Shown here one piece after another: positions 3,052-63,206 of a stretch of DNA of 64,000 nucleotides. The notes under the pieces were generated by a model, which did no database searches, was not told where the DNA came from, and saw only the letters and a list, made by a program, of their open reading frames with translations. Positions within the stretch are counted from its first letter, which is position 1; the number at the start of each line of letters is the position of its first letter. Location of the stretch: IMG/VR virus record IMGVR_UViG_3300017971_004694; one strand, 5' to 3'. This stretch comes from a virus. Made by a program: the position numbers and the translations under genes.

Positions 3052-3063
3052 TTACTAGAAACC

Positions 3064-7924: not shown

Positions 7925-7971
7925 TATACAATCCTCCAAAGATATTATATATCCTTTCAGGAATATGTTTG

Positions 7972-32891: not shown

Positions 32892-33929
32892 TTAGCCAAC
32901 GGCTACGGACTTGCGACCAACAGCGCAACCTCTTGGGTTGACGATGCCGATTCCGATGATCTCGGAAATAACCCAACCAAGCTTAAGCTGCTTTGGTTCG
33001 TCTGCTGGGAGCACCTCGATGTCCTGACGGACAGGCATAACACCAACAAACTCTGGGTCAGCCGTGCCGAACACGGTTCCGGCTGGGACGATCTTGGAAA
33101 CGATAATGTCGGCTCCCCAGATGTGGGCATAAAGACCAGTCTGAAGAATCTCTCTCATCGTAACAGGATCAACCTCGCCGCCACCAGTTCCCTGGCCACC
33201 ACCAGTTGCCCAATTCAGAATGTCATTGAACTCAATGATATTCATGAGGAACTTGGTAGTTACAAGGTCCCAGCGGTCAACCTGAACCTTGATCTCGGAG
33301 AGATCGCGCTTCAGGAGGCCAGCGTCCGCAATGTCCTGAGCGGTGTTCTCGCCGCCAAGAGTAGCGTCGGCTGCGAAATCCAAAGCTGCGAAGATGTTCG
33401 CATCCTCTTGAGCCTGGATTTCCTGACGAGCCTTTTGCTGCGCACGGTCGATGACGTTGAAACGACGCCTTCTGACTTCCGCGATACGAACGGTTGGGTT
33501 GGAAACAACCTCAAACTCTGGAACGGTCACACGGTCACCAAATACGCGGCTCTCTGGAGCCGAACCGTTGCTGGAAACAACAACAGCCGCGACATCAATA
33601 TCTCGGTCATACACAGGCAGAGCGCCCTGAGGAAGTGGGTCTACAACAAGAACTCTACGTCCAACACCCTGATAATCCAAGTTCCTACGGATTGGATTAG
33701 CCATGGCCTGGCCAAGAGCAATCTTGCCTTCCTGCGTCATAAGGGCACGCTTAATAAGCTCGTCTCTTTGCTGATCAGTAAAAGATGGATTCTGAGCTAG
33801 ACCGGTATTAGCTGGCTGAAGCTCCTCCAAGACACTAGCATACTTTACAATATTTGATAGGGCATCTTTAACAGAGCTAGCATTCTGTTCACCCTGGCTT
33901 CCATATGTGCTGAAAAGAGACATAAGCAT
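32892..33929 (-). CDS. Major capsid protein (HK97 fold) with N-terminal propeptide
   Basis: 345 aa; LGQAMANPIRRNLDYQGVGRRVLVVDPLPQGA, PEFEVVSNPTVRIAEV...FNVIDRAQQKA...EDANIF pattern; AGGAGG RBS, own promoter and terminator; codon usage typical of high expression. Confidence 0.85.
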   Translation of the reverse strand: MLMSLFSTYGSQGEQNASSVKDALSNIVKYASVLEELQPANTGLAQNPSFTDQQRDELIKRALMTQEGKIALGQAMANPIRRNLDYQGVGRRVLVVDPLPQGALPVYDRDIDVAAVVVSSNGSAPESRVFGDRVTVPEFEVVSNPTVRIAEVRRRRFNVIDRAQQKARQEIQAQEDANIFAALDFAADATLGGENTAQDIADAGLLKRDLSEIKVQVDRWDLVTTKFLMNIIEFNDILNWATGGGQGTGGGEVDPVTMREILQTGLYAHIWGADIIVSKIVPAGTVFGTADPEFVGVMPVRQDIEVLPADEPKQLKLGWVISEIIGIGIVNPRGCAVGRKSVAVG

Positions 33930-42978: not shown

Positions 42979-45900
42979 TTAATCCCACAGTTTAAGAACT
43001 TGAGTGGAAAGATCTTCCGACACTACGCCTTCACCAAGGTCGTCGCTCGTCACGCCAACCTGAAGTGCTGGGGCAGCAGTCTTAACTGGAGATGGCTTCG
43101 TTGCGCGGCCAAGGGCACGCTTAAACGATTCAAAGCTCTCAGCATCGATCTTCATGAGATCGTCTACCTGCTTGTCAAGAGCAGCCTTCCCATCAGGAAG
43201 AAGGCCCTTCTCTTGCATCTCAAGAGCAACAGCAAAGGCTCTCTTCATGCGAACCTTCTGCTCCTCAAGATCCGAAGCTGTTTTCTTCTGGGCATATTCC
43301 TTGGTCAGTTCGGCGCCGAAAGTCTTGCTCTCGGAATCTCCCTCACCAAAATAATCCTTCCAGTATTTAGCAGCGGCAGGATCTACTGCAAAAGCCTTAA
43401 GCTTCTCTTCATCGCTTAGGTCTCCCAGATTTAGAGCACCCTCTTTAAGCAATCCACCAAGGTGTTCCATGGCTTCGCGGACCTTTGGAAGATTCTGAAC
43501 TGCCTTCATAATCTCCTCATGCATCTCCACGAGGCCCTCCACAGTGGCTTCTGGGGTCTTAGTATCAAGCTGACCAAGACCAAAGCTCTTACCAAGCGGC
43601 ATGTCTGTATCTACCGTGGTCTGTGGATCCAACTTGAGCTGATACTTGGCTCCAACCTCGGCTGCGATCTTCTCACGCCACGCGCGGCGGTCTTCAGCGG
43701 TGACTTCAAGATCATCAGCTTCGGCTTCATCAAGCATCTGAATAAGCTCGTCATCGAGCATATTTACATCATCAGCAAGCTGCTCATCATCGGCCATACC
43801 TTCAAGCTCTCCCTCAAGCAGAGCCTCTGGTTCTTCGTCTTCCATAACCTCGACTCCTGCCATCTCTGGGCCACCATGCTCCTCTTCCTTCATTTCCTCT
43901 TCCATGAATTCTTCGGTAAGACCCTTCTCTTCTAGAACCTTCTCTACAATCGCCTTGATGGCTTCCTCGTCTGCGGCCATGCACTCACCACTACCCTCTT
44001 CCCCTTCCTGAGCTTGACGGACCATTTCACGACGACGCTCGGCGCGAGCCTCTAGAAGCTTCTCAACGATAAGCTCAGCCTTGCTCTTTTTCTTATCCTC
44101 TTTCTCTTCCTTCTTTTCTTTCTTTTCCTTCTTTTTCTCTATGGCTTCCTCAAGAGCAGGAGGCAGTTTGCCCTTTTTGCCCTTCTTCTTTTTCTTTGGC
44201 TTCTCTTCCTTTTCTTCCTTCTCTTCCTTCTCTTCCTTCTCTTCCTTCTCTTCCTTTTCTCCATTCTCTTCCTCTTCTTCCTTCTCTTCCCCCTTAGCTG
44301 CATCAACTATCAACGAGGCCTCTTTACGAAGCTCAACGTTTTCGTCAACAGCATCCTTGGAAAGTCTAAGAAGCTCGGCTACAACAATATCTTCCTCGCC
44401 CTTTCCAGCCTTCTTGCGGCTTTCAAGCGATTCGGCAAGCATAGCGAGTTCATCTGCACTCTCATCGAGAGCGGCGTAGGTGGACTGAATTTTATCGGTC
44501 ACTTCAGCAGTAGCCAGCATTTCTGGGTCATCGGCAGCGTCGTCTGCATCGTCGGCGTCATCTGCATCGTCAGCCTCAGTTGGAGATGGAAGCTCGGCCT
44601 CACCCTTTCCGGTAGTTTCCTCAAGGGCATCCTTGAGATCGCCAAGGGCCTTCTCAGCCTCTTCCAGATTTTCAGTAAGGGTCTCAACAGCCTGATCCAC
44701 TGGATCTTTTGCAGGCTCTTTTTCCTCTACTTCTTCTGGGCCAGGTTCACCACCGAGATCCATTGGGGGCATCTCTGGGGCACCAGCGGCAGGTGGGGGT
44801 GCTGGAGGTGCTGGAGGTGCAGGTGGTTGGGCGGTCTTAGTAAGACCGTCGCCCTTAAGAACGTAAGCCACCTTTGCAAGACCATCCTTACGAATAGCCT
44901 TAAGAACCTCGCGACCATAGCGTTTGCTGGTAAAAATATCCCACTGGTCATCAAGCTGATCTTCCCAAACCTCGCACCAGTAGCCTCAAGAACCTTGTCG
45001 GGACCAGCATAAACTTCCCAACGAGACTTCTCCTTGTTCACAGAGGTCTTCGCATCGTCATTGAAAGCCATGACGAACTTGGCGCGAAGCTTCTGGTCAG
45101 CGCGGAGGTGCTTCTTCTTCTCAGCAAGCTCAGCTGCGCCGCCACCAAGATTCTCTGGATTCTCGTCCAGATACATACCAACCATCTGCTTGTCTTCTTT
45201 CTTTTTGACATTATCATTGGTTGGATCGACCGGATAGGTCTGTGGCTCATTGACGCCACCGCCGCCCTGGTGATAGGCCCTCTTCTCACCGAAGACCTCT
45301 TCCATTGAATAGGCATTCTGCTCTGGATCATCAACGGCATCGTCGGCTGCACCGGAAGCGACTTCCTTATAGACGGTTTTTCCATCGGCGCCTTGCATAG
45401 GAACCAACTTCTTTCCATCGGTGGTGGTAATCATACCCTCGCCGCTAGAAAGAAAAGCGTGCCTCTTCAGCCTGCGCTCCTCAAGCTCTGCCCTAGACAG
45501 TTGCTTCTTAAGTCCAAGTTCCTTAGAACCACCACCAAGGTTCTCTGGATTTTCATCGAGATACATCCCGACCATTTGCTTATCTTCTTTCGCTTTCACT
45601 TGATCGTTCAATGGGTCCACTGGGTAGGTCTGTGGTTCATTTGCTCCACCACCTCCCTGATGATAAGCGGACTTCTTGAACTCTGCACGACGGGCCTCAG
45701 CCCTTTCACGAAGCTCTTTTTCAGACATAGTATGCTCCTCCTTTTTTATCTGGACGCCACTGGCTAAGTCTCCAAGTGCATTTTCCAAAGCGTCCACTTT
45801 GTTATATATATTAGTTACTTCACTTGCGAATCGAACATCAAATCCCGTTGGGTCGTTATAGTTGTCGGGGCCGGATTTAAGATCCTGTATGTATCCATGG

Positions 45901-47090
45901 CCGCCCCTACCGCTGGTCATCGCTTTATTCCCAGCAAGACCATACGGTGGATGTATTACTTCCACGTCTGCCGCCTGGGCTACTGGAGGCGTTGGGGGCG
46001 CCTCTGGTGCTGCTTCTTCTGGTGGCCCCTCAGCAGATGCTAATTCAACAATCTTATTCATTAGCATCTCTCTAACCTGAGGAGGCAGATCCGGATTATC
46101 CTTGAGGATGTTGCTCCAGTTACGTGCCTCTTCATCAGCTCCAGCAGCTTCCTTGACTAAGCCCTGTGATAAATTGGCGACAGTCTCGCGAAGGTCTTTA
46201 ACATCCTTGGCCAAACTATCAAGTTCGCCAGGAGTAACACAACCAGCAGCCCTAAGCTCATTAATTCTATCTTCCTTTTCCTCAGAATATTTATTGAGGC
46301 TGGCTATTACGCTTCTTAGTTGTGCGCCTGGATCTGCGCCGGTCACCACGAGGCCAAGCTCAATTGGAGAAAGATCAACGTTAATTTCTCCATATGTTTG
46401 CTTACCCTTAACACAAGGACAATAATCGGCTTCTACCTTTGCGACATTGCCGCACTCAAAACAGATAGACTTTCCAACAGCCGTTCCCATAGAGACGTTA
46501 TTGGCATATCCCGTAGAAACCTTTCTGGCCAAGTCCGGATAGTTAATCTTATCCAAAGCACATAGGGCGATGACGCGTTTGCGGGTTTCATCATAGTGAG
46601 TGTCAATTATGATGCCCCTAATTCCATCGACAGAGCTGCTTTGGTGATCTTTGCAGAGGGGCCTTCCAATCCATTTCCTATAGGCTAATTTAAGTTCTGA
46701 CTCTGGGAAAATATCGCCATTGTTGTTTTTGTATGGCTTGATGCTTGAATCACTACATTTCCATTTCCAAGAGCCGTTCTTTTTGTTGACGACCCACTCA
46801 CAAGTAACTGGATCATCACCAACTTTTTTGATTTCTCCATTTGCATCTAACAAAGCGGCTTCTGCCGCATGCATCATTACGCAACTGAAATACAAAAAAT
46901 CTTTAGCCTTTGGTGCTACGCGCTTCAAATGATTAGCATATTTCAAGAAGCGCTTTCTGATTTGTGCGTCCGCCTCTGCAACTTTGGGACTAAGCAATAG
47001 TTCTTTTACGTCAGGATTAGACAACGCCGAACAGGGAGAGTGAATCTCATCAGTGCTGAATTGTGCTTCAGCATATTTAATTATGGACAT
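42979..47090 (-). CDS. Prohead protease-scaffold fusion (about 1370 aa), split by a 1-nt frameshift near 44973
   Basis: Start MSIIKYA after GGAG; protease motifs NNNGDIF, KDHQ (His), VSMG (Ser), IELGLVVTGADPGA and a CFEC/CPC Zn insert; the -1 frame after EATGA reads EVWEDQLDDQWDIFTSKRYGREVLKAIRKDGLAKV directly into ORF 42979..44871 (acidic, helical scaffold). Confidence 0.8.
45099..45678 (-). repeat. Two near-identical peptide repeats of about 60 aa within the protease-scaffold (45488-45678 and 45099-45287)
   Basis: AYHQGGGG(A/V)NEPQTYPVDP.ND.VK.KEDKQMVGMYLDENPENLGGG occurs twice. Confidence 0.9.
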
Positions 47091-47232
47091 TGCGTTCTCC
47101 GCCGTTTGGATTTTCTTTCTCTTTCTCTGTTTTCTCATCGTCAAGGCCAGCTTGTTTTCTAATTTCCTTTTCTGCTTCTTCTTTGTCGTCATAGACATTA
47201 TCGATTTTGGTTGTGGATCTTTTGATAATCAT
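47077..47232 (-). CDS. 51-aa small internal-protein-like peptide (missing from the ORF track)
   Basis: GGAG RBS; MIIKRSTTKIDNVYDDKEEAEKEIRKQAGLDDEKTEKEKENPNGGERNVHN; overlaps the protease start. Confidence 0.55.
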   Translation of the reverse strand: MIIKRSTTKIDNVYDDKEEAEKEIRKQAGLDDEKTEKEKENPNGGERNVHN

Positions 47233-47966: not shown

Positions 47967-48227
47967 CTACTGTGTGCTAATGTATTGGGAGGAAAATCCT
48001 TCCCAGGCAAACCCTTGATTCATGTCTTGAACAGTGCTGTCTCTTAAACCTACGATATTTTTAGCAAGTTCCGCGACCTCTTTATTATACTCTGGATCGT
48101 TGGTTTCGTTCTCCATGATGAAGCTGTGCAGAATATCCGTAACAACAGATGCGGCGCGTATGAATTTTTTGCGGCTTAGCTCATCAATTAGGTTAGACAG
48201 ATCGCCTATGACCTCGTTTTTTATCAT
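47967..48227 (-). CDS. Small hypothetical protein (weak copy of the internal-protein helical motif)
   Basis: 86 aa, GGAGG RBS. Confidence 0.55.
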   Translation of the reverse strand: MIKNEVIGDLSNLIDELSRKKFIRAASVVTDILHSFIMENETNDPEYNKEVAELAKNIVGLRDSTVQDMNQGFAWEGFSSQYISTQ

Positions 48228-49750
48228 TTTATGCCGCCTCCTGGTGCAAACGGTATAGACATGATTCCAGTTGGAACCGTGCTAGTTATGTAGGTTGTGT
48301 ATCCAACACTGGCGGGCTCCGGGAAAGGAACGTCGTTTCTTGCGGGTGTTGGGAGGGAACATTCTTGCTCTTGCTCTTCTAACTCTGGATTTTCATAAGG
48401 TTCTTTATCACCCAATGATTCTCTAATCTTATCTGTATCAACTGGCTTTTCGCCGCAAGGCTCAGAGAACCAATCGATGAGATCGACAAACATATCTTTA
48501 AATCCATAAGCTTTTGCTTCGGCGTATGCTGCCTTACATGGCCATCCGTTCTCGGTTCTAAATCTGGCTATGACGCCGCCCGTTCTATCTTGGCCAAAAT
48601 AGCAATGAACATAACAGGGTTTTTGAACTAAAAGCTTTGTGACGCAGTTTCCAAGAATATTTCTGCCGTATTCTTCTGGGCGTCCGCTCTCTAGAAATGC
48701 TGGGACATGCTCTAAGCCTACATCGTTGCACATTCGAGCGATGTCTGGATTCGCATGCAACGAGATCACCCTTTCTACTCCAAGTGATTTCATAGCTTCC
48801 AATTGTGCGTGGTCATCAATCATTCCGCCCCTATACACCATCCCAGGAACGACCACTGCAAAATTCCTGGGAAGCGACCTAGGGTTTGGTCTCAAATCTC
48901 CAATTTTATTCAAGGTTTCTACATCGAGCTTTCCTGTGGGTTGCAAGCCACTCTTTGCCTGCCAGCTAGCCAGCCCAACCACAAAATCAGCATCTAGTTG
49001 GGCAGTCTTACAAATATCTGTAATTATTCCAAACAAATCCATAACTGTCTTGCTGTGGGAAACTTTTTGATTAAATTCTACAGCATCCTCTATATCAAAC
49101 GCTGCAAGTCTCGGCTCACCTTTTAACAAAAGTGCGACACCTGTTTTGACCATCTGGTATTGATTCTTGTTAGCCGTGTGAGCTACAAATTCCAGATCCG
49201 GCTCGCCTATTGGGCTGTCGGGCAAATATTTCTGCCTGATGTCTTCAAGCTGCGAAGCAGCTTCTACGAGAGACGCCATAGCTCTTGGACGCATTCTGAG
49301 TCTTTGCATGAATTGTCTCGCCTCTGTCTCCGCCTCTGGCTCTCCTAGGAATGGAGATGTGACAGGGCGCGGTGCGCCCCTTCCAAGATGGCCCATCTCA
49401 TGAACGATGGTTTCCATCAAGCCGTCGAGAACAGCGTTTTCAAGCTCGCCTGAAGTTACAGTCTGCTTTGTTGCTTGGCCAGAATTGCGCATTGTGATCT
49501 CTCTAATCCTATCCTTGAAGATGTGGATCTCGCGCGGGTTTTTATTGGGGCCACTTTCCACATGACCCAATTGCCCAGAGCCACCTCCAGAGTGAACCTT
49601 GATTCTTATGTCTGGAGGCAGAAGACCTGGGCTGATTTGGTCAATCATATTCACTGCCTTATCAACAGCGGGATCCCAAGGCTCAATGACTATCCTGGCT
49701 GCTCGTTTGCTAAATGAAAAGCTCACTTCAATCTCCTTATACGGTTCCAA
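48224..49750 (-). CDS. Multidomain protein: zincin (HEMGH), PG-binding-like segment and Cys-dependent protein-tyrosine/dual-specificity phosphatase
   Basis: HEMGH...EPEAE; WQAKSGLQPTGKLDVETL; PRNFAVVVPGMVYRGG...VISLH...VHCYFGQDRTG (CX5R); N-terminal FSKRA. Confidence 0.75.
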   Translation of the reverse strand: MEPYKEIEVSFSFSKRAARIVIEPWDPAVDKAVNMIDQISPGLLPPDIRIKVHSGGGSGQLGHVESGPNKNPREIHIFKDRIREITMRNSGQATKQTVTSGELENAVLDGLMETIVHEMGHLGRGAPRPVTSPFLGEPEAETEARQFMQRLRMRPRAMASLVEAASQLEDIRQKYLPDSPIGEPDLEFVAHTANKNQYQMVKTGVALLLKGEPRLAAFDIEDAVEFNQKVSHSKTVMDLFGIITDICKTAQLDADFVVGLASWQAKSGLQPTGKLDVETLNKIGDLRPNPRSLPRNFAVVVPGMVYRGGMIDDHAQLEAMKSLGVERVISLHANPDIARMCNDVGLEHVPAFLESGRPEEYGRNILGNCVTKLLVQKPCYVHCYFGQDRTGGVIARFRTENGWPCKAAYAEAKAYGFKDMFVDLIDWFSEPCGEKPVDTDKIRESLGDKEPYENPELEEQEQECSLPTPARNDVPFPEPASVGYTTYITSTVPTGIMSIPFAPGGGIK

Positions 49751-52782: not shown

Positions 52783-55700
52783 TTATGCCGCCAAAAGTCT
52801 CTGCAATTTTCCCTTTAAGTTCAAATACCTGGGGACATTTTCTCTAAACTCATACACCAAGGCCCATCTTCTTCCTGCTGCGCTTGGGTGTTTGTCTTTT
52901 TTGGCTTCTTCGTATCTGGACTTCAGCCTTTCAATCTCTTCTTCTATAGACTCAATCATGCCAGAAATCTCTTCTTTTTTTAAGAACCTTATCCTTTCAT
53001 CTGGATCTGGAACATTCAAAAGATTTTTCCATCTTTTCACAACATTAGGTTCTCTTTGCTCGGGTCTTATATAGAGCGGATCCCAACGAAGTGGGCGCTC
53101 CCTATCTAAAATCTTCCCGGCAGTTTTCTGATCTATTTTGCCCAAAAACTTAATGTCTTTTTTATACTTGTTCCAGATCTCCTCCGAGAATAATATCTCA
53201 TGGACACCCTCTAATTTATGCAAGCCGCCGGCTTCTTTAATCATTTTCATAGGAACTTTATATGTATAGACATTTCCAAAAATGCCGTGGCGTGGGCCAA
53301 CTGTTCTCCAATTGGAAGTCATAAATAAGCCTACACTAATGGGCTCTTCTGTTTGCCTTGATCTTACCCAAGAGTGCTGACCAAGTTCAGCGTATTCTGG
53401 GTCTATCTTTTCCCAAAGCTCAGGATCAGGCAACCATCGTGTCTTGGGTCTGGGAATAGGTGGTCTTGGCCCTACGTGATACAATATTTTGTATTCTCCT
53501 TCCCTACGCACAGCCTCTTTCACAAACTCCCCTTTAGCAAATAGAAAGTCGTCCGCCATGTCCTCGCTTTCACCTATCTTGCTCCAATCCGCATCTGGCG
53601 GCATTAACCTATGTTTTTTGTATAGGTCTAGTTTGACTTCTTTATATCTTTCCATATCCCCTTCTTGTAATGCCCTGTGCTTTTCAAGTATTTGTCTATG
53701 CCTCTCTTCAACCGGGGCATCTAAGATGCGCTTGAGACCTTTAAGCTGATATTCCACATGCTCTTTGGGTCTTACTTTAAGATCTATAGAAATCCCTTCA
53801 GATGTCTCATATGTGTGCTCAACATAAGCGCCCTCTTTCACATTGGAAAATGGTATGCCCGCCTCTGTTAGCATCTTGCTGGTTCTCTCAACATCGTCGG
53901 TTCCAACTTGAAAGTCTATGTCCGATACGCCGGGGATGTTAATTCCAGCCGCCGTTGAACTAACACAAACAGGATCAATCCCAAGTTCCTTGAGTCTCTC
54001 TTGCTCTCTTTTCATTATCCTGAACATCTTGCGGCGTTCTCTGGCGCTCTTTAGCAAGACTTCATATTCTTCTTTGGTGTATTTTGCCGCTTTCTTGAAT
54101 AGTTCTTTTTTCCTGTCCTCATCTATTCTTGCGGCATCCATCTGCTTGTCTGTGGCCACCACCGCCTTGATGGTCTTTTTCTTCTGCATCACGGCTTTGG
54201 CTAGTCGATGGTAGCCGTCAATAACCTCGCCCTTATATACCAAGATCGGATATTTCAAATCCGCGTCCTTTATTCTTTTAGTATCATCCTTATATTTCTT
54301 AGGATTCTCAAGCACCTCTTCTGGACTATGGGCACCCTTCCCTGGACCAACCTCATCACCCCATACTTTTTCTTTCATGTTCCATTCAAGAGTGCTAATG
54401 GGGACATTCTCCGCTTTGTTGTCCGCAGTGATTTCTATTAACATATCCACGGAATATGCTCTATCACTATCCGTGTAAGTCTGCCCAGCCTTCTTCTCAA
54501 GATCATCTTCCTTGGCTTCCATGATCATCCACTTGTTTCCATCAGTCTTGAAGACCTTGTAGGCGCCCTTTTCCTTTTTGCCCTTCAACTTAAAGACAAT
54601 TTTGCTGCCGCTCCAGGAGATTTCATTATAGGTTCCAGAGTCATAAACTTCCACTTTTCCAGCACCATATTCGCCCTTGGGAATCTCTCCCTTGAACTTC
54701 ATGTATGAAATTGGGTGATCTTCCGTCTTCATGGCCAACAGCTTTTCTTTGCCTTTGGGAAGCTTGTGTTTTGGGATTGCCCATGAAGACATAGCACCCT
54801 GATCGTTTTCAAGTCTCAAATCGAAGTGTTCCCCAGCCCTCTCAGCCTTGTGGCGTTGAATTACAAACCTGTGCTTATTCTTTCCTTCTTCTTTGCCCTC
54901 TGGTTCTGGGGTCTCTTCAAACTCTCTTTTTTTTTTGTAAGTTGAAAGCGGGTCTTTCGCTGCCAATCTCAATTGGGCTTTCTTTCTACCCTTCATTTTG
55001 AAAAGTTCCATATCCAGAATATCCTCTATATTATATGGATATTCCTTCATAGTTCTTTCAATCTGCTTAGAGAACCTGGCCCAGAATTCTGGATTGTCTT
55101 TTTGAAGCACAACAAGCTCATGGAACTTATCCCAGAAATCAGCACCTATCTTATTATTCTCAAGCTCGTTTATCGCCTTGATTGGCATCCAGTCATACTT
55201 CCCAGGCATTACCAAAGCTCTCACAAGCATATATTTGCCCGGAGTAAACTGATTGGTCTTGGTGGTTAATGAGATTCCATTGTAGTCGTGTTCTTTCATG
55301 CCGCTAATGTCATCTTCCTTACCAGCCACCATTTTCTCAGCTTGCCATTTTGGTACAGCCTCAAGGCCGCCAATTTGTCTTGGTTCCAATCCTTCCAGAT
55401 CGGTTTCGTCTAAGTTCCAGATGTCCAATACTCTAAGCAACCTTGGCGTAGTTCCTTTTCTCCTCTGGCGTATTTCTTTACCCTGTAGGTTAAACCTGGC
55501 ACCAAGCGGAATGGCATCCTTGCGAGGAAGCTTCAGTCCATCTTCAACTTTCGTTATGAAATATGTGCCTGGGCCATCAGAGGATATACCATCTCTCTTC
55601 ATGGATACAAGCCACTCATCTAAACCAAACCTTTCATATGGGTTCTCAACGGACAACATTTTATCCACCCAACGCTGAAGTAGAGGTATAGAAACTTCTT

Positions 55701-58700
55701 GTTTTTTGAATTTCTCATTGATCTTCTTCTTCCTCTCTTCAAGTTTGTTCTGCATTTCCGACGAGCCCGTGCCCTTATTTTTCTTGACCTCTGCCTCAAG
55801 CATAGCCCTGGCCATCCAACCAACATAATGTAGTGGATCGTCAAAGGCATAGTCCTTTGTGGCACTCAAAAGAAATAGTTTTCTCAGAAGAGCAGCTCGT
55901 CTCTTTGCGGATGGCGCTTTAACCTCCCCTTCCTCTATTTTCTCTTGTAGGAAACTCAGCTCGTCATAATAGTCATAGTATTGTCGAACGGCACAGCTTT
56001 GGCCTATTGGAGCCACTTCGTTAAAAGCAACCATCAAATCTGCATGAGGATTTTGCTCTCTATGCTCTTGCGGAATCTCTTCCCTTCTCAGCTCTTTTTC
56101 AACCGTTCCCCACATATCTCTTGTGTGAGGTCCCCACAAAAAACCAGCAGCCGGAACCTTTTGTTCCTTTCTGGCTCGGCCAATGGTAAATCTTACACCA
56201 TCATGCGGACAGATAAAGGGAACCTCGTCCAGCCATGCTGGCGGAGTTCTTCCCTCTCCCTCGGGAGATGGCACAGCCTCTTCTTCTCTGGCTTCCTGTT
56301 CTGTTATTTCTTCTTCCATTGGGGGCACAAGTCCGTAATATCTTTTAAGCTTTGCTTTGATTTCCTGGCCTCTGCCTGTTTTCCAAATGTGGTGGTTCCA
56401 ATCAATAGAATTCAAGGGAACCCTACCACCTGGACAAGTTGGATTTGGGCACCAAGTATGAGACCAAGGCACTGCGGCTTGGGCTGAATATATTCCCATC
56501 TTTCTTTCTATATCTTTTTTCTCCTGCGCCAATCCACTTATTTTTTCATTAAGGTTTGTGAGCAATCTGTTCAGATCTCGTATCTTGCGCTCACCACTTT
56601 CTTTATCTTTAGGATCTGTATATGTGTCCTTGGCCTTGGAAAAGAATCTCAAAAGCTTGTTGGCTTTCTCTTGTTCTCTTTGCATAGTAGTTAATTTGCT
56701 ATCCAAGCGAGGCAGTTCTACGTTCCTCAGGCCTTCTACTCTTCCGGCGCAGTCTGGACACGCCCAGGTGCGTTTTTTTGTCTTTTGCATCTTGGGTGGA
56801 AGGGAGTTTTTCTCAAGGGTTTTACATATAGAGCACACTGGATTTTTTGATACTGTGTAGCCCTTATCCTTGGCCACTTCCTTGACCATCTGTCTGTCCA
56901 GGATTTTATAAATCCATTTATCCATGTTTATTGGTTCTACATTAGCCCTGTCCTCAGAGAAATATTCATTGGCCAAATCTGTGGTTTTCTCTATAATCTT
57001 CTGGATATAAGGTTTGGCCTCAGGCTGCTCTTCGAAATCAAGTTCTTGATTTCTTAGTTTTCTGGCCCTCTTCGTATCTATATCATCAAACATGCCAAAT
57101 GGCGCGTCAGGGAAAGTTCCAAATTGCTTGTTCAACCTGCCAGAATTTCTTATAAACCACATGCGACCTATAGATCTAACTATGTAAGGCAGAATCCAGC
57201 TCTGTAGGAGATGAGGCTCCTTCTTCAATATTTCCCAAGCTTTTGGATCATTAAGCAATTTTCTAAACTTAGGCCCTTCTTCCATTTTGTCTGGTGTAAA
57301 AAAGTCAAGCGCCTCCGAGGACATAGGGGGCGGATCTGGTTCTTTCCAAGTAGCCGTGCCCTTTTCGTCCACAGGAACCTCAAGTTTGGGGGCAAAGTAT
57401 GGCTTTGCCTCCGCAAGATGCCTTGCCTCTTCTTCTAGAGCTTCCATGCTATATTCTTCTACTACGTCCTCTTCTTCTTCCTTTTTGGCTTCTTTCTCCT
57501 CCTCGGACATCAGTTTTGAAATTTCTTCCCAGCGCTCTTCGAACTTTTCAGGATTGGCAAGCTCAACAAGCTCGCCGGCCATCTTTCCAGGGACAGCGGC
57601 GTATAGCTCAAAGCCGTTCATCATTCTATTATATCCCTTCTCCGCTTCTATGTCGGCTGCTTCTATATCATCCATATCAATGAAGGATTTGTTTAAATAC
57701 TCCGTTAAAGCTTCTGGATCAAGCGTCATTATTCTCTTCACTTCCTCATTGGCCTTACGAGCAAGGTATTCGTCTATTAGTTTTTTGATGGTGTGCTTTT
57801 GTTTTTCTGTAATCTCTCTGACTGCAGGAGGAACAACCTCTTTCTCCCTTTCAGCTTTTCTTTCTCGTCCAAGCAAATATGCAACCTCTTCTGGAGTCAA
57901 ATCTTCTAGTTCTGTAAATTCTTCCTCTTCTTCCAGCTCCTCTTCTTCCTCTTCAGGAATGGCAACTTCTTCCAGCTCTTCTTCCTCAAAAGCAACCTCT
58001 TCTGGCTCTGGCTCTGGCTCTGGCTCTGGCTCAGGTTCTGGCTTGGGAGCTTCTTCTACAACCGGAGGCTTTTCCTTAATCTCTTCTGGAACGGGAGCTG
58101 GAATTGGCTCCTCGCTTACATCCTCCCATTCGTCATCCTCCTCTTCCTCGGAGATTTCCTCAAGAAACTCCTCTTCCTCTTTCGGAAGCTCTTCAGGGAG
58201 CGCCTCTTCCTCTTCAAGTTTGGCCAACTCCTCTTCCTTTTCTTTTAGAAACTCCTGGTATGGTTGCTTCATGCCCTCAAGCAAACCCTGTTCTTCTTTT
58301 TCTTTTCTCCACTTCAGAAACTCATCAAGTTCTTCTTTACCTGGCGCCTCTCTTTTTGGCTTGGGCTCTACCCCTTCTTCCTCAAGTTCTTCGTATGTTC
58401 CACCATAGGGCTTCATCTTTTCGCCAAACATCTCAACGGCTTTTTCGCTTGGAAGTGGTCTTGGCTCAGTTGGCTCCACGAAGCCCTCTTCTTCCCTTTC
58501 GCGTCTTTGTTCCCCTTTAAGCCTCTCGATTTCAGCTTCGTCAAGCCCAGCTGCGAATTTTTCTATTCTATCTAAAACCTCACTAGCTTTTAGCCATGCT
58601 TCATATTTTTGTTTGGCTGGCCCCAAAGTCTCTGCGCCATTAAGGAAATTGGCGAACACCCAGGCAAAATTCTCTGAGTCGTCTGGGCCAATAGCCGTGA

Positions 58701-61700
58701 ACAACAAACCATCTTTTTCAATAGGGAGCCCCGTCCAAATACCCTTGGAACGGCGGACACTGCCCATAATCTCTGGCCAACCAGTAACTTCTCTTCCTTT
58801 CATAACGCCTGCCTCGGCAGCAAGAAGTGGGGCGTGGCAAATCATAGCGACGGGTTTCTTCTGACGCACGAATTTCCTAAGGAGTTTCTGTGCTTTCTTA
58901 TCCTTGGAATATTTAACCATGCCCATGCCGCCAACTACAAAGAGGGCATCATAATCTCCAACATCAACACTAGCAACCTTTTTGCTTATATCTACGGCTG
59001 TGCCCCTATCTCCAGTGGCTTTCAGCCCAGATGAAGCAGTATCAACATCAAACTTAAACTTCTCTACAAATAGATTGAGCGGAGTGGTATATTCAATCTC
59101 ACAAAAATCTTCTGGAGAAAGTATCATTAAAATCTTTTTGGCTTTGGCCTCTTTTATTATTTCTCTTCTAGATAAAGCCATTTTATCATCCGCATCAAAA
59201 TAAGTGCCGATTTCGCCAAAATCCACTCCCTTGGTTGGGAAGAAAGGAATTGCTCCCGTGTCTAAGCCACCGGGCTCTTTATCAAGATTTTCTGGGAGCA
59301 TGGTGTATTTCTTTCCATATGATTGTGGGAACTGATCCGAATCATCCTGCTTTCCGCCCATTGGCCCTTTCACTTTGCCTTGGGTCTCTCCAATGGAACC
59401 GGGAACACGGATGCTGCCTTTATTATGGAGCGTAGAAATATCACTCCTCATGCCGTCGCCTTTTACGACGCCAGTCTTCACATCTGGCCAATCCTCATTA
59501 AGCTCGTTCAGAAGCGTTTTAAGCTCTGCTCTGAGCTTATCGATTCCAACCTCTTTGTCGAGCTTGAACTCTACGTGTAGCCCCGTTCCGCCACTCTGGA
59601 AGATGGTTGGCGTGGAACCATACTTGGCCTTCAGCTTTTTGGCGAGCGCCCTGGCATACTTCTTGGCTTGGTCTAATGAATATTTGCCGTGAATATCCAA
59701 ATCAACAAAGCCCAGGTTTGTCTTTGTTCCGAATACCTGGTGGAACGAAAGAATGCGCCTTTTGACCCAGTAGAAATAGTTGTTTGGGTTCTCGGAGTTT
59801 CCAGGGTCATCGTTGGTTATTTTGATTTCTTTTCCATCATGATTTCTCTTGAGTATTTTCTGGTTCTTGCCTATGCCAATATACACCAATACCGGCTTGT
59901 CTTTGATGCGAGACATGATTTTCTTACGGATTTCCGGCTTTTCATAATGGCTTTTAATCTGACCACGAGTAAGCTTGGTTCCTTCTTTGTCAATTAGCAC
60001 CTCAGACATTTTCTCCTGATCTTCATCGCCATCGTCATCCGCCATCTGAACGCCTTCATAAACATCAAATCTAATAACCATATAACGCTTATTAGTACCG
60101 AATCTTCTTTCAAGCGCCTTGGCTATACGCTTGCCAAAAGCCTTTTCTATGCGCTTGCTGCTCATCCTCTCTTTGGCAGTAATAAGCAGATCACAAACAT
60201 GCGCTCCGCCATAAGTGCGACACTTCACCACTTCTTCGACACTCACGGGAACGTCACTTGTGCGAATAGTCATCCTGCGCTTCCCGTTTTTAATCGCATC
60301 TACATATTGAGAAGGGAAATAAAGAGCACCTGGCTCGGCATAAATGGCAGCGTGTTTAGACAAAGTTAGGCTCGCCTCTCTTCTTTCTTCACCGCTCCAC
60401 TTTCCAGGGGCAAACTTATCCTTTAAAGTTTCCCAATTTTCCAATACAAAATTAGCTATTTCTCTGCTAAGATAATAACCAAACTCCTCATCTGTGATTT
60501 CTTTACCATATATTTGACTATACTCTTTGCGAGCCTGCTCTTTGAGAGCCGGGTTCATCTCAAACTCTTTTTCGGTCTTATGATATAGTTCACCAATCAC
60601 TTCTCGCTGAATAGGATTAATGACAATTTCCATCGTGTCTTCTTCCACAAACTCGTCTTCATCCTGCGCTCTTTTACTAAGTATCGAAAGCTCGCCTACC
60701 AGTCGTCTGGATGGAAATCCACCCATACCACGACCACCTGGAACACCCCTTAGCAACTCGCTTGCTATAGGAGCCAGGTCGGGTTGGGTTTGCATCAGCT
60801 TGGTAAGAACTTTCTTGAACCTGGAAGAATATAGATAATGTAGGTGTCCTGGTCCAAAAGGTTTTCTGCCATACAGGAATCTCTGCACACGACCAGGGCC
60901 GCTTCCATTGGATATGATGATTAACTGGTAGATATTGTAGGCGTTGGGCGCAGTAGTATCATAGCCAGACTTTTGCACATATCTGGTTGTAGCTCTAATC
61001 TTGTTCATAAAATCTTGTCTTGAAGTGTTTTCTATTAGATTGCCTACAGCCTTATCTTTTCTTATGTTTTTGGAGTTAAACTTACGCTTAAACTTGGCGA
61101 AGGAACTTGGGTTATTCTTCATCACGATGAGCCCTGCAAGCTTACTGCGTGCTACATTTCCCGTAATGTAAGTTGTGAATATTTTTTGCACCTCTCTTCT
61201 AACGGCAGGTGAGTCCGCGCCCAATTGCCTAAGAATCTCTGGCTTAAGTGTCTTGCCGACATACCTTCCATCCTTTTCCAACACAACCATGTTTGGGCTG
61301 TATCTTATGAAAGTTCCTTCTCTGCGCCTTACTCTGGATCTTGGGTTCTTTTCTAAGAAGGCTTTGATAATTCTTGGATTAATGTCTTGATAATCCCAAA
61401 TATTTTGCTTGCGAACCGCCTTCAAAGCCCTCTTCCAATCACTAGACATTTTCTTAAATTCGCTAGGAGAAATGCCAGTTGCGCTTTGAGCATTGGGCAT
61501 TCTAGAAAGCATCCCCATAAAATACGGACCATGAACCTGAGTTGGGCCAAAGGAAGTTCCAGAGTCTCCAATAACATGCGTTCTTCCACCCGATTCCAAC
61601 TGAGCCATGATTCTAAACATTTTTTCGCCATCGACACCGCCTATCGTCCCAAGCCTGCCCGGAGCATGCGTGATGCCCAGCATCTTTTCAAGCCTTCGTA

Positions 61701-62190
61701 TAATAGTATCTACATAAGAGGCAGTCTTAACAAGCATAGCTCTTTTGGATAGATGCTCTTTAAGCAATTCAATATCTCCCTGATCCTTTGGCCTGTTCAT
61801 TTTCTCCTTCCACTCTAATACATGTTCGGGCGCCCAATGTTTGAATCCAAGATGTTCTCTGGTAGTGACACCCTCGCTCATAAAATCTTTGTCTCCCACC
61901 ATCCAAGGCCCAGTAAATATTTCTATTTCTCCCACATCAGTTTGGAAAGACGCCCTGGGATTTCCTGGTCTTATTTCATCAACGACCGCATCGGGATGCT
62001 GCTCAATTTTCTTAAACTCATCTGGGTCCGCATGGACATCTAAATCATTAATGCTTTTTACACCCAAGGCCCCAAGAACGCCGCTTCCACCAATAGTGAT
62101 TTTGTTGATGTCTACTCCAACCTCATCGAGTATTTCCTTGAGGTTTCTAATGAACGCCTCGTGCTTTTCTTTTTCTGGATCTCTGGGCAA
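52783..62190 (-). CDS. 3135-aa polyprotein: NTase-like, SLT/lysozyme-like, ASCH, LigD-type AEP polymerase, DJ-1/PfpI, acidic linker, Cys-rich domain, LigD 3'-phosphoesterase, ParB/Srx-like, second NTase and ART-like domains
   Basis: GGSG..DLD; QLESGG..GD.GTSFGPTQV; DAIKNGKRRMTIR; VDLD/SGGTGLHV/RVPGS; EIE..GG.G..ICHAP; QRHKA...HFDLRLE...EDHP..Y; YPIL..IDGYHRL; SS...SDID; YH..FMTS..HEIL. The TTG start has no clear RBS. Confidence 0.75.
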   Translation of the reverse strand: MPRDPEKEKHEAFIRNLKEILDEVGVDINKITIGGSGVLGALGVKSINDLDVHADPDEFKKIEQHPDAVVDEIRPGNPRASFQTDVGEIEIFTGPWMVGDKDFMSEGVTTREHLGFKHWAPEHVLEWKEKMNRPKDQGDIELLKEHLSKRAMLVKTASYVDTIIRRLEKMLGITHAPGRLGTIGGVDGEKMFRIMAQLESGGRTHVIGDSGTSFGPTQVHGPYFMGMLSRMPNAQSATGISPSEFKKMSSDWKRALKAVRKQNIWDYQDINPRIIKAFLEKNPRSRVRRREGTFIRYSPNMVVLEKDGRYVGKTLKPEILRQLGADSPAVRREVQKIFTTYITGNVARSKLAGLIVMKNNPSSFAKFKRKFNSKNIRKDKAVGNLIENTSRQDFMNKIRATTRYVQKSGYDTTAPNAYNIYQLIIISNGSGPGRVQRFLYGRKPFGPGHLHYLYSSRFKKVLTKLMQTQPDLAPIASELLRGVPGGRGMGGFPSRRLVGELSILSKRAQDEDEFVEEDTMEIVINPIQREVIGELYHKTEKEFEMNPALKEQARKEYSQIYGKEITDEEFGYYLSREIANFVLENWETLKDKFAPGKWSGEERREASLTLSKHAAIYAEPGALYFPSQYVDAIKNGKRRMTIRTSDVPVSVEEVVKCRTYGGAHVCDLLITAKERMSSKRIEKAFGKRIAKALERRFGTNKRYMVIRFDVYEGVQMADDDGDEDQEKMSEVLIDKEGTKLTRGQIKSHYEKPEIRKKIMSRIKDKPVLVYIGIGKNQKILKRNHDGKEIKITNDDPGNSENPNNYFYWVKRRILSFHQVFGTKTNLGFVDLDIHGKYSLDQAKKYARALAKKLKAKYGSTPTIFQSGGTGLHVEFKLDKEVGIDKLRAELKTLLNELNEDWPDVKTGVVKGDGMRSDISTLHNKGSIRVPGSIGETQGKVKGPMGGKQDDSDQFPQSYGKKYTMLPENLDKEPGGLDTGAIPFFPTKGVDFGEIGTYFDADDKMALSRREIIKEAKAKKILMILSPEDFCEIEYTTPLNLFVEKFKFDVDTASSGLKATGDRGTAVDISKKVASVDVGDYDALFVVGGMGMVKYSKDKKAQKLLRKFVRQKKPVAMICHAPLLAAEAGVMKGREVTGWPEIMGSVRRSKGIWTGLPIEKDGLLFTAIGPDDSENFAWVFANFLNGAETLGPAKQKYEAWLKASEVLDRIEKFAAGLDEAEIERLKGEQRREREEEGFVEPTEPRPLPSEKAVEMFGEKMKPYGGTYEELEEEGVEPKPKREAPGKEELDEFLKWRKEKEEQGLLEGMKQPYQEFLKEKEEELAKLEEEEALPEELPKEEEEFLEEISEEEEDDEWEDVSEEPIPAPVPEEIKEKPPVVEEAPKPEPEPEPEPEPEPEEVAFEEEELEEVAIPEEEEEELEEEEEFTELEDLTPEEVAYLLGRERKAEREKEVVPPAVREITEKQKHTIKKLIDEYLARKANEEVKRIMTLDPEALTEYLNKSFIDMDDIEAADIEAEKGYNRMMNGFELYAAVPGKMAGELVELANPEKFEERWEEISKLMSEEEKEAKKEEEEDVVEEYSMEALEEEARHLAEAKPYFAPKLEVPVDEKGTATWKEPDPPPMSSEALDFFTPDKMEEGPKFRKLLNDPKAWEILKKEPHLLQSWILPYIVRSIGRMWFIRNSGRLNKQFGTFPDAPFGMFDDIDTKRARKLRNQELDFEEQPEAKPYIQKIIEKTTDLANEYFSEDRANVEPINMDKWIYKILDRQMVKEVAKDKGYTVSKNPVCSICKTLEKNSLPPKMQKTKKRTWACPDCAGRVEGLRNVELPRLDSKLTTMQREQEKANKLLRFFSKAKDTYTDPKDKESGERKIRDLNRLLTNLNEKISGLAQEKKDIERKMGIYSAQAAVPWSHTWCPNPTCPGGRVPLNSIDWNHHIWKTGRGQEIKAKLKRYYGLVPPMEEEITEQEAREEEAVPSPEGEGRTPPAWLDEVPFICPHDGVRFTIGRARKEQKVPAAGFLWGPHTRDMWGTVEKELRREEIPQEHREQNPHADLMVAFNEVAPIGQSCAVRQYYDYYDELSFLQEKIEEGEVKAPSAKRRAALLRKLFLLSATKDYAFDDPLHYVGWMARAMLEAEVKKNKGTGSSEMQNKLEERKKKINEKFKKQEVSIPLLQRWVDKMLSVENPYERFGLDEWLVSMKRDGISSDGPGTYFITKVEDGLKLPRKDAIPLGARFNLQGKEIRQRRKGTTPRLLRVLDIWNLDETDLEGLEPRQIGGLEAVPKWQAEKMVAGKEDDISGMKEHDYNGISLTTKTNQFTPGKYMLVRALVMPGKYDWMPIKAINELENNKIGADFWDKFHELVVLQKDNPEFWARFSKQIERTMKEYPYNIEDILDMELFKMKGRKKAQLRLAAKDPLSTYKKKREFEETPEPEGKEEGKNKHRFVIQRHKAERAGEHFDLRLENDQGAMSSWAIPKHKLPKGKEKLLAMKTEDHPISYMKFKGEIPKGEYGAGKVEVYDSGTYNEISWSGSKIVFKLKGKKEKGAYKVFKTDGNKWMIMEAKEDDLEKKAGQTYTDSDRAYSVDMLIEITADNKAENVPISTLEWNMKEKVWGDEVGPGKGAHSPEEVLENPKKYKDDTKRIKDADLKYPILVYKGEVIDGYHRLAKAVMQKKKTIKAVVATDKQMDAARIDEDRKKELFKKAAKYTKEEYEVLLKSARERRKMFRIMKREQERLKELGIDPVCVSSTAAGINIPGVSDIDFQVGTDDVERTSKMLTEAGIPFSNVKEGAYVEHTYETSEGISIDLKVRPKEHVEYQLKGLKRILDAPVEERHRQILEKHRALQEGDMERYKEVKLDLYKKHRLMPPDADWSKIGESEDMADDFLFAKGEFVKEAVRREGEYKILYHVGPRPPIPRPKTRWLPDPELWEKIDPEYAELGQHSWVRSRQTEEPISVGLFMTSNWRTVGPRHGIFGNVYTYKVPMKMIKEAGGLHKLEGVHEILFSEEIWNKYKKDIKFLGKIDQKTAGKILDRERPLRWDPLYIRPEQREPNVVKRWKNLLNVPDPDERIRFLKKEEISGMIESIEEEIERLKSRYEEAKKDKHPSAAGRRWALVYEFRENVPRYLNLKGKLQRLLAA

Positions 62191-62228
62191 ATCATCGGCG
62201 TCACTCTTTTTAGCTTCCTTGAACTTAT

Positions 62229-63206
62229 CTATGTTTTAGAATGAAACTCATGCATGGTTGCGTCCTTAGGGCTTTTGTCTTCCCTGAATCTCACAAACTT
62301 TTGGTGCCTAAGACCGCCAGGCTGTCGCTCTTGGAAACCTATCTCAATTACAAAAGGCCCTTTCTTGAGCTTACTTTTAATCTTCCCCTCGTCTTCTTTG
62401 GAGAAGTTGCTAATCTCGCTCATATGATAGAGCTTCCCTTTATAATATTGCCCATAGAGAGCCTTTAGCTTATCTTTTTCGCTCATCTCGTAATCAAATA
62501 CGACATAATCATCACTTTCGCTTTTACCAGCACCACCTTTATATTTATACATAATCTTAGGTGGCTTGGGCTCAGTTTCACCCTTGCTCTTATATTCATA
62601 TGGTTTATCTTTCAGCTTTAGCACAATACCTTCTCCGCCAGTGTTGACGGCTGTGTTCATGGCTTTCTGCCAATCTCCAAAGCTATAATTCTTAGTAAGT
62701 TTTACCTTATCACTCTCTTTCACAAGACTTTGTAGTGCCTTGCGGCGCTCTCCAAAGCCCTTGTCTGCTACTTTGTTGCCCTTGCTCCAAAGCACATCGT
62801 AGAGATGTATCTTCACGGAACCCGGAAGTTCCTTGGCCTTTTCAGCAGATTTTTCTGGCGAACTACCAGCTAAAGAAGTGACCTTGCCTACGTCTTGTTT
62901 ATTTTTATCCCAATATACCAACTCACCTTCAACGTGCGTTCCTTCAGGAAGAAAGCTAAGCGCCTCAACAAGCTCGGGGAAGTTTTCGGTTTTCTCATCA
63001 CCTCTGCGGCTATAAAGACGAACCTTTCCACCAGTTCTGATGATCTGAACTTTCCAGCCATCCAACTTCTCTTCTACCACAATATTTTCACGATTGAAAT
63101 CCTTTAGGAGTTCATCCACATCTTTAATCTCAGTGAGACGCATTAAGGACACTGGCCCAAGGCCATCTGGAGACGCTCGTAGAGATAAGGCAAGCTTGGT
63201 AGTCAT
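62229..63206 (-). CDS. lig: ATP-dependent DNA ligase (LigD/LigC-type adenylation plus OB domain)
   Basis: EEKLDG (motif I), VEGEL (III), LYDVL (IIIa), EGIVLK (IV), YKYK (V), LRHQKFVRFREDK (VI). Confidence 0.9.
   Translation of the reverse strand: MTTKLALSLRASPDGLGPVSLMRLTEIKDVDELLKDFNRENIVVEEKLDGWKVQIIRTGGKVRLYSRRGDEKTENFPELVEALSFLPEGTHVEGELVYWDKNKQDVGKVTSLAGSSPEKSAEKAKELPGSVKIHLYDVLWSKGNKVADKGFGERRKALQSLVKESDKVKLTKNYSFGDWQKAMNTAVNTGGEGIVLKLKDKPYEYKSKGETEPKPPKIMYKYKGGAGKSESDDYVVFDYEMSEKDKLKALYGQYYKGKLYHMSEISNFSKEDEGKIKSKLKKGPFVIEIGFQERQPGGLRHQKFVRFREDKSPKDATMHEFHSKT

Follow-up and report, generated by a model that had tools for sequence, protein, structure and literature searches.

How does a bacterial virus come to encode, among its head genes, one giant protein with the three enzyme types of bacterial nonhomologous end joining (NHEJ), and what would such a protein do? 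The question is raised by IMG/VR virus record IMGVR_UViG_3300017971_004694, whose source is a ~450-kb myovirus and a distant relative of Bacillus phage G. We analyzed a stretch of 64,000 nucleotides from this record, here called the window; nearly all of its genes are carried on the minus strand, including the gene under study at positions 52783-63206. This gene encodes a polyprotein with a DNA ligase (LIG), a primase-polymerase (POL), and a 3'-phosphoesterase (PE), all with intact active-site residues. For comparison we used 16 metagenomic polyprotein homologues of 1.9-3.2 thousand amino acids and 36-70% identity, which with the window protein make 17 family members, and a distant set of 26 POL-bearing polyproteins beyond these 17. 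No close cultured phage relative of the polyprotein was found, and Bacillus phage G is without a polyprotein homologue. On balance, we consider it somewhat probable, judging from sequence features, that the polyprotein is capsid cargo, cut at short repeated tags and injected as a nucleic acid end-repair kit that acts without Ku.

PE matches PF13298 (LigD_N) over residues 2445-2547 with 94.7 bits against a gathering cutoff (GA) of 31.1, and TIGR02777 with 144.4 against a cutoff of 144 as an isolated module and 137.5 within the whole open reading frame (ORF). Its PDB matches 3p43, 3p4h, 2lj6, 5dmp, and 3n9b have E values from 1e-33 (3p43) to 3e-21, and alignment with 2lj6, 3n9b, and 3p43 shows the motifs KRE, QRH, HFDLR, and DHPISY. 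Against the Pseudomonas LigD PE 2lj6, R-[DE], Q-x-H, H-x-D-x-R, and H...Y are conserved, the only catalytic residue to differ being the D behind the Arg, here an E. With metal-binding and catalytic residues kept and profile scores of this size, PE is unambiguously recognizable as a true LigD-type 3'-phosphoesterase, as a sequence-only reading of this locus had proposed. LigD PE removes 3'-phosphates and 3'-ribonucleotides.

The same reading had named an archaeo-eukaryotic primase (AEP) polymerase, and here the support comes from motifs and structure. POL scores below the curated cutoffs: for PF21686, 25.0 as a module and 20.5 within the ORF (residues 826-906) against a GA of 27.4, and for TIGR02778, 18.5 against 214.7. 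PF21686 is nevertheless matched by 46 of the 51 sequences (best E value, 1.8e-18) in an alignment of the window module with 50 of 224 relatives from a full-database search. The catalytic residues are D830/D832, S866-G-G-x-G-x-H872, and R915-x-D917, and the DxD, SGGxGxH, and RxD motifs are invariant or nearly so both in the 17 family members and in the 51-sequence alignment. With only 16 close homologues, structure modeling gave a pLDDT of 54, whereas the AF2 model rebuilt from the 51 diverse sequences reached a pLDDT of 94.1, with a Foldseek match at an E value of 1.7e-11 and a TM of 0.72. In VIA comparisons, the best match was the LigD PolDom of Mycobacterium tuberculosis (2irx; Z 21.1, 2.7 A, 217 residues), further matches being Pseudomonas aeruginosa LigD (19.9), the Methanocella NHEJ polymerase (19.4), and Prim-PolC (18.6), with a gap to the next clade, the primases, at Z 13.9. 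On this model, POL belongs, as a divergent member, to the clade of NHEJ primase-polymerases.

The third enzyme has a different affinity. LIG belongs by PF01068 to the ATP-dependent DNA ligase superfamily, with motif I (KLDG) and motif VI (RFREDK) both read in the translation and a weak Pfam match to the OB domain (14 bits). It scores 96.5 bits with TIGR00574, but only 81.2 bits against a cutoff of 227.75 with TIGR02779, the model for the ligase of LigD, and its PDB matches are far better to archaeal ligases (9dfa and 2cfm; E value, 1e-19) than to M. tuberculosis LigD LIG (1vs0; E value, 1.4e-4). By these scores, LIG is a minimal ATP-dependent DNA ligase closer to the archaeal Lig1 type than to LigD's own ligase. 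Because LIG falls short of the LigD-ligase model and lies nearer to archaeal Lig1-type ligases, the claim of a complete LigD set holds as a functional analogy, in that three enzyme types are present, but not as orthology, for which only two-thirds of the set qualify.

Are the ligase and the rest of the protein one gene or two? The window shows a 325-amino-acid (aa) ligase ORF (P0002) ahead of a 3,135-aa ORF (P0001), as if LIG were a gene of its own. That is not its design: a 1-nucleotide frameshift separates the ligase from the giant ORF. Of the 17 family members, 13 have the ligase at the N terminus of the giant polypeptide itself; the 3,135-aa frame stays open back to position 62235, where a -1 shift would join the ligase frame; homologue P0005 reads the same peptide uninterrupted across the junction; and DNA alignment shows A5 in a related contig (L012) against A4 in the window, with conserved flanks on both sides. 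Taken together, the alignments indicate that the two ORFs are one gene for a polyprotein of ~3,460 aa, split by the loss of 1 nucleotide. A programmed frameshift was considered and rejected, there being no slippery heptamer but only the A4 run; a 1-nucleotide indel, from an error in assembly or a recent mutation, is more likely. The exact ligase product had no matching record, and scans of viral and metagenome contigs for the pattern came back empty. Within its polyprotein, homologue P0015 has an intein with a LAGLIDADG endonuclease (PF03161, E value 3e-21, plus Intein_splicing).

What separates the modules within this protein? A K-x-A motif had been said to flank LIG and PE and to follow POL. 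As a code it is too loose, with 28 copies observed against 20.8 expected in the ORF, and so not above chance; the claimed sites themselves, however, coincide with positions at which homologues have [LI]-S-K-R-A. We replaced K-x-A by the pattern [LIFVM]-S-[KR]-[RKH]-[AG], with expectations taken from shuffles, and counted 45 copies in the 17 proteins against 2.6 expected, a ~17-fold excess. In the family alignment, [LI]-S-K-R-A, mostly preceded by F-x, marks every module border, and the distant POL-bearing polyproteins have 3-8 copies each. ParB-like and nucleotidyltransferase (NTase) modules relocate between homologues yet stay bounded by the tag. The window has three strict tags, all within the giant ORF, and its other junctions have degenerate forms of the tag, which in the alignment fall opposite strict copies of homologues: the N terminus of LIG (MTTKLALSLRA) is a degenerate copy, and PE is bordered upstream by RKKAQ..LAAKD and downstream by LEKKAG, both aligned with LSKRA of homologues.

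The tag is also found outside the polyprotein interior. In seven instances it lies at the extreme N terminus. It is N-terminal in polyproteins P0004, P0038, P0039, and P0042, and it is present in a large protein upstream of TerL. The tyrosine-phosphatase-like protein encoded next to the polyprotein starts with SFSFSKRA, and the tag is N-terminal there as well as in five related contigs (L001, L003, L004, L005, and L012); the true start of this protein is probably a GTG just ahead of the tag, and we regard it from its sequence as a candidate for a second injected cargo protein or effector. Judged by sequence, the tag pattern resembles a T4 capsid-targeting sequence and a protease site combined. 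In phage G (L014, 1-27000), many head-module proteins (gp5, gp8, gp9, gp10, gp12, gp13, gp17, and gp20) have in common an N-terminal x-R-L-K-K / R-L-I-S-K peptide, which may be a sister tag of [LI]-S-K-R-A. A link between the tag and the propeptide of the major capsid protein (MCP) was also considered: the MCP has a conserved L-I-K-R-A, which falls opposite residues 11-15 when the shorter MCP of phage G is aligned, but the entire MCP is conserved as well, and the comparison is uninformative.

The setting of the gene among head genes, as proposed from the window, could be confirmed. The window itself has a head-protease-like ORF and, downstream of the polyprotein, the MCP and sheath genes, and in relatives TerL (GpA family) and the portal lie directly upstream of the polyprotein, the order being TerL, portal, a small protein, an optional 450-600-aa protein, the polyprotein, and the protease-fusion protein. 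The order TerL-portal-polyprotein-head protease-MCP is kept in five to six other contigs, including L001 (460 kb, with a polyprotein homologue of 2,718 aa), L003, L012, L013, and the contig of P0038; the same placement thus recurs in homologous contigs, with the portal-to-protease block conserved. In the distant 65-kb contig L013 (5893-18775), the cargo occupies the same slot behind the portal in the form of two overlapping ORFs, one of 1,371 aa with topoisomerase IB and DNA ligase and one of 2,924 aa with 2H/LigT, POL, PE, and eight tags, and the contig of P0038 is arranged alike. Among the 26 distant polyproteins, 14 have LigD_N, 11 DNA ligase, and 7 topoisomerase IB, while fewer have PolyA_pol/CCA NTase, 2H/LigT, HD, GNAT, ART-PolyVal, Acb1, or VanY. 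Of these modules, ART-PolyVal, Acb1, VanY, and topoisomerase IB are typical of injected polyvalent proteins (PMC5512222). Late transcription, which had also been claimed, is not readable from the sequence: promoter and terminator scans of the window gave no excess over shuffles.

How might the polyprotein act as injected cargo? The tag would serve as a T4-like capsid-targeting sequence and protease site, and the polyprotein would be loaded into proheads, where the head protease is the likeliest enzyme to cleave it at the tags. Cutting by the head protease is more likely than cutting by the embedded PfpI domain, since PfpI occurs in only 2 of the 26 distant tag-bearing proteins. The freed enzymes would enter the host together with the DNA, where POL would fill short gaps, PE would clean 3'-phosphate or 3'-ribonucleotide ends, and LIG would seal. 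As an outcome, annealed genome ends would be closed, and nicks and breaks mended, before any phage gene is expressed.

Several points weigh against this proposal. Most junctions in the window bear degenerate tags only, next to the three strict copies, and the role of the tag could be that of a simple linker or of a signal for docking. The L-I-K-R-A of the MCP lies in a conserved and probably folded segment and gives no tie of the tag to the head protease. The terminase is of the lambda gpA type, and we infer cos ends from the terminase family only. Neither a MuF/portal anchor nor a zincin peptidase was detected by Pfam and PHROGs in the window protein and the 16 homologues. Ku is normally needed by the LigD polymerase and ligase to bridge ends, and a late role in the cytoplasm would likewise be in keeping with a gene placed in a late operon. 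On the other side, particle proteomics of phage G reported many nucleic acid enzymes in particles (PMC12484599), which lends weak support to packaging. Extended to the whole phage-G-like megaphage clade and its smaller relatives, the proposal becomes more tentative, and we put it forward as a possibility short of an even chance: they may have a portable [LI]-S-K-R-A load-and-cut code that packs enzymes into the capsid and so delivers a Ku-independent kit for antidefense and for repair of DNA ends, nicks, and gaps, active ahead of phage gene expression. The interchangeable cassettes of such a code would be ligase, NHEJ-type polymerase, 3'-phosphoesterase, topoisomerase IB, NTases, phosphatase, ART, and Acb1.

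Could the enzymes instead stay in the cell in which they are made? The polyprotein would then be produced alongside the head proteins yet left unpackaged, and it would seal nicks and fill gaps in the replicated genome shortly before or during packaging, the tags being flexible linkers or sites for a protease of the cell or the phage. DNA for packaging must have no nicks or gaps, no MuF virion anchor was found, and the hard evidence for packaging of the protein consists of gene position and motif only. A linker role, however, leaves the N-terminal tag on unrelated neighbors unexplained; the peptidoglycan-acting and antidefense modules of relatives (VanY, Acb1, and ART-PolyVal) suit entry into a cell; and homologues of 36-70% identity, and even the split two-ORF form, keep the slot behind the portal. 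We therefore consider late cytoplasmic repair unlikely.

If the polyprotein is packaged, it might also be ejected whole, with the tag as a docking peptide for scaffold, protease, or portal. Precedents exist in the N4 virion RNA polymerase (~3,500 aa) and in some plasmid polyvalent proteins, which are transferred unprocessed (PMC5512222). In some proteins, moreover, the tag is at position 4-8, where cutting would free just 6-7 residues. This last point loses weight against T4, which cleaves off short N-terminal targeting peptides of like shortness. Delivery in one uncut piece also sits badly with modules that shuffle freely as tag-bounded cassettes, with L013, in which the same content is spread over two ORFs, and with archaeal NHEJ enzymes, which work as separate proteins and are among the best PDB matches (5dmu and 5dmp), so that we regard it as quite unlikely.

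Injection and cutting may be accepted and the function of the kit still be read differently, as true NHEJ of restriction or CRISPR breaks by LIG, POL, and PE with host Ku or with an unrecognized phage end-binding protein. PE and POL belong to NHEJ-specific families, POL is nearest to the Ku-dependent LigD PolDom (Z 21.1 versus 18.6 for Prim-PolC), and mycobacteriophages reportedly exploit NHEJ. Classical NHEJ requires Ku, however. As had been noted for the window, no Ku gene was found there by tblastn with Corndog gp87, nor in six related loci, and PF02735 detected none in two relatives, one of 301 kb (75% complete) and one of 98 kb. Furthermore, the ligase is not of the LigD type, host Ku cannot be assumed, and joining a cut phage genome is mutagenic. 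End joining of this kind, an earlier suggestion for this locus, is thus not supported; we hold it to be decidedly doubtful, and it is more likely that ends, nicks, and gaps are sealed independently of Ku. RNA repair, in which the kit would heal and seal tRNAs or other RNAs after cleavage by anticodon nucleases of the host or by RNases of abortive infection, in the manner of T4 Pnkp/Rnl, is improbable. In its favor, LIG weakly passes the RNA_ligase model (PF09414, 29.6 bits versus a GA of 27), and the activity of LigD PE on 3'-phosphates and 3'-ribonucleotides, the ASCH domain as a putative RNA-binding domain, the two NTase-like modules of the window protein, and the PolyA_pol/CCA-type NTases and 2H/LigT phosphoesterases of relatives would suit it. 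Against it, the OB domain of LIG is that of a DNA ligase and includes motif VI, LIG scores 112 bits as a DNA ligase against those 29.6, POL and the topoisomerase IB of relatives act on DNA, and the window protein showed no polynucleotide kinase.

The remaining modules and the neighboring genes are listed in Table 1. The order in the polyprotein is LIG, NTase-like, SLT-like (with a question mark), a small unit, ASCH plus POL, DJ-1/PfpI, the acidic spacer, and the Zn-cluster core, followed in the C-terminal part by PE, ParB/Srx-like, and variable units; at least six modules of the window polypeptide can be assigned by Pfam and PHROGs. Both ends of the giant ORF vary. The NTase-like N-terminal module has no tblastn match at that place in L001, L003, L004, and L005 and is found elsewhere in P0006 and P0008, and the variable C-terminal modules have no match in four related loci. 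ART was rejected as an identity for the C terminus, for which there is only an Atlas lead to a PARP cluster (score 0.87, 16% share), as was SLT for residues 152-503, which are without a Pfam or PDB sequence match and have a weak Atlas lead (score 0.89, 34% share). The ASCH-like module joins POL through a conserved A-D-D (A717, D718, and D719), with no tag between them. The DJ-1/PfpI domain, present in 13 of the 17 family members, has an intact Cys-His elbow (ICHAP). Comparison of the central 800-aa core with PDB profiles gave coiled-coil noise only. Croceibacter phage P2559S has a stand-alone homologue of the ParB/Srx-like module, encoded within its structural module.

Table 1. Features of the polyprotein gene and of neighboring genes in the window
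Feature	Residues	Position	Strand	Basis
ATP-dependent DNA ligase (P0002), N-terminal module (NTase + OB)		62229..63206	-	PF01068 112 bits
A4 run, one A missing versus homologues		62234..62237	-	Sequence read, P0005 peptide, DNA alignment with L012
Polyprotein remainder P0001		52783..62190	-	ORF list and translation; 16 homologues of 1.9-3.2 thousand aa
Variable N-terminal module, nucleotidyltransferase-like	1-147	61750..62190	-	phrog_12854 E 4e-5
Linker tag 1, HLSKRA	147-151	61738..61752	-	Motif scan
Conserved module	152-503	60682..61737	-	Invariant E-S ... G-D-x-G-x-S-x-G-x-T-Q, A-Y-N-x-Y-Q
Linker tag 2, ILSKRA	504-508	60667..60681	-	Motif scan
Linker tag 3, TLSKHA	610-614	60349..60363	-	Motif scan
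ASCH-like module	615-712	60055..60348	-	PF04266 in 6/17 family members, best E 4e-6
LigD-type (NHEJ clade) primase-polymerase	720-960	59311..60033	-	PF21686 (below GA), AF2, Foldseek, VIA
DJ-1/PfpI module	1018-1177	58660..59139	-	PF01965 104 bits; TIGR01382 86.5 bits; PDB 4hcj, 1oi4
Acidic low-complexity E/P/K-rich spacer	~1200-1589	57424..58593	-	Translation; aligns poorly among homologues
Large conserved core	1590-2400	54991..57423	-	Cys-x2-Cys / C-P-H-D clusters, coiled coil; invariant Cys/His/Trp columns
LigD-type 3'-phosphoesterase	2415-2560	54511..54948	-	PF13298, TIGR02777, PDB matches
ParB/Srx-like module	2566-2685	54136..54495	-	phrog_17560 E 9e-16
Variable C-terminal modules	2686-3135	52786..54135	-	Weak NTase match PF14907 E 0.012, plus 265-aa end
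Tyrosine-phosphatase-like neighbor, 508 aa, tyrosine/dual-specificity phosphatase domain		48224..49750	-	PF03162 29 bits; weaker Tc-R-P, PTP-SAK matches
Head-maturation-protease-like domain in 823-aa protein		44727..47198	-	phrog_18299 E 1e-12; NF045541 29.8 bits; L001 homologue
Major capsid protein (MCP)		32892..33929	-	phrog_2522 258 bits; 54% identity to phage G gp27
Sheath gene		5552-7939		Window

The capsid itself belongs to a widespread lineage. The window MCP is 100% identical to that of a 452,619-bp contig and has >1,800 homologues, the best 120 of which are at least 80% identical; these numbers indicate that the capsid lineage is abundant in metagenomes. At its N terminus it is extended by ~46 aa for which phage G gp27 has no counterpart. 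The 301-kb relative from IMG/VR (G001:C1:187659-192111, L006-L009) has its MCP gene in four pieces over ~4.5 kb with stops between them; the pieces are 82-93% identical to the window MCP, which is uninterrupted, and the break is probably due to introns or homing elements. Between the protease and the MCP, a 1,241-aa protein (36480-40205, minus strand) has an endolysin-like stretch at residues 891-955 (phrog_17214, E value 2e-5) and is a possible ejection or cell-wall-piercing protein. Several proteins encoded between the polyprotein and the MCP (50064-51734, 47967-48227 on the minus strand, and neighbors) have in common a helical segment like L-x-x-x-A-N-x-L-D-x-x-G near their N termini.

How does the polyprotein compare with known systems? 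Bacterial LigD, which has POL, PE, and LIG and works with Ku, and the split set of Methanocella paludicola (5dmu, Pol; 5dmp, PE) comprise the same three enzyme types; the phage PE is in the same family with its catalytic residues, POL is in the NHEJ AEP clade, and LIG is a minimal NTase plus OB ligase. Unlike in LigD, the phage modules are spread along ~3,460 aa, interspersed with at least eight unrelated modules, and are probably released separately, LIG is nearer to archaeal and eukaryotic Lig1-type ligases, POL stays below the curated LigD models, no Ku was found, and the gene is viral and part of a head assembly operon. Mycobacteriophages Corndog and Omega circularize their genomes with phage Ku and host LigD. 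The window phage is like them in its use of NHEJ-family enzymes, probably for closing genome ends on entry, and opposite to them in what it brings: they bring Ku and borrow LigD, whereas it brings ligase, polymerase, and phosphoesterase, with no Ku found. Mycobacterial Prim-PolC/LigC (6sa0 and 5op0) likewise pairs a Ku-independent AEP polymerase with an ATP-dependent ligase for short gaps, and Prim-PolC is among the top structural matches of POL (Z 18-18.6); the LigD PolDom is a slightly better match (Z 21), however, and the phage enzyme lacks the C-terminal extension and is set in a viral polyprotein.

Multienzyme proteins injected with phage DNA are already published as polyvalent proteins, described by Iyer, Burroughs, Anand, de Souza, and Aravind in 2017 as proteins of phages and conjugative elements predicted to be delivered with DNA (PMC5512222). 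The window polyprotein is similar in its very large size, in its disparate domains (NTase and ParB-like; in relatives ART-PolyVal, GNAT, 2H, and peptidoglycan hydrolase), in its place among virion genes, and in its predicted processing, delivery with DNA, and action before gene expression. It differs in that the MuF anchor and zincin metallopeptidase were undetected and its modules are set apart by a short tag, [LI]-S-K-R-A, that recurs between them. The same study lists no LigD PE, DNA ligase, DJ-1/PfpI, or end joining, and the PrimPol domains that it describes are limited to Firmicutes and Fusobacteria, in conjugative elements (PMC5512222). In T4, the internal proteins IPI-III and Alt have an N-terminal capsid-targeting sequence cut by the prohead protease gp21, and giant phages of the phiKZ/SPN3US type have ejection proteins (PMC5694885, PMC10052503). 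A short common N-terminal peptide on unrelated head-module proteins is the shared feature, recognized here by sequence alone, and it would fit a signal for both targeting and cleavage on enzymes that enter the host with the DNA; the differences are the motif, S-K-R-A versus L/I-x-E or A/S/G-x-E, and the internal repetition of the phage tag, which strings many enzymes together. The literature searched has no description of LigD modules in a virion protein, of the tag letters, or of end joining in huge phages, a jumbo-phage survey (PMC7824862) is without LigD, and the earlier statement that no described phage delivers LigD modules from the virion stands within that literature.

The concept of polyvalent proteins would thus be extended into DNA repair and to tag-based processing in place of an embedded metallopeptidase. 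The modules are compact stand-alone LigD-type enzymes from new sequence space and possible reagents, and the tag, if it acts as proposed, could be used as a tool to load foreign proteins into capsids and would be a simple, testable rule for predicting the capsid cargo of uncultured megaphages. If the proposal is true, this would be the first virion-delivered DNA repair system in a bacterial virus. Very large phages would secure their long, vulnerable genomes at entry with their own ligase, gap-filling polymerase, and end-cleaning enzyme, closing ends and mending nicks and nuclease damage ahead of host or phage expression, a form of counterdefense undocumented for phages.

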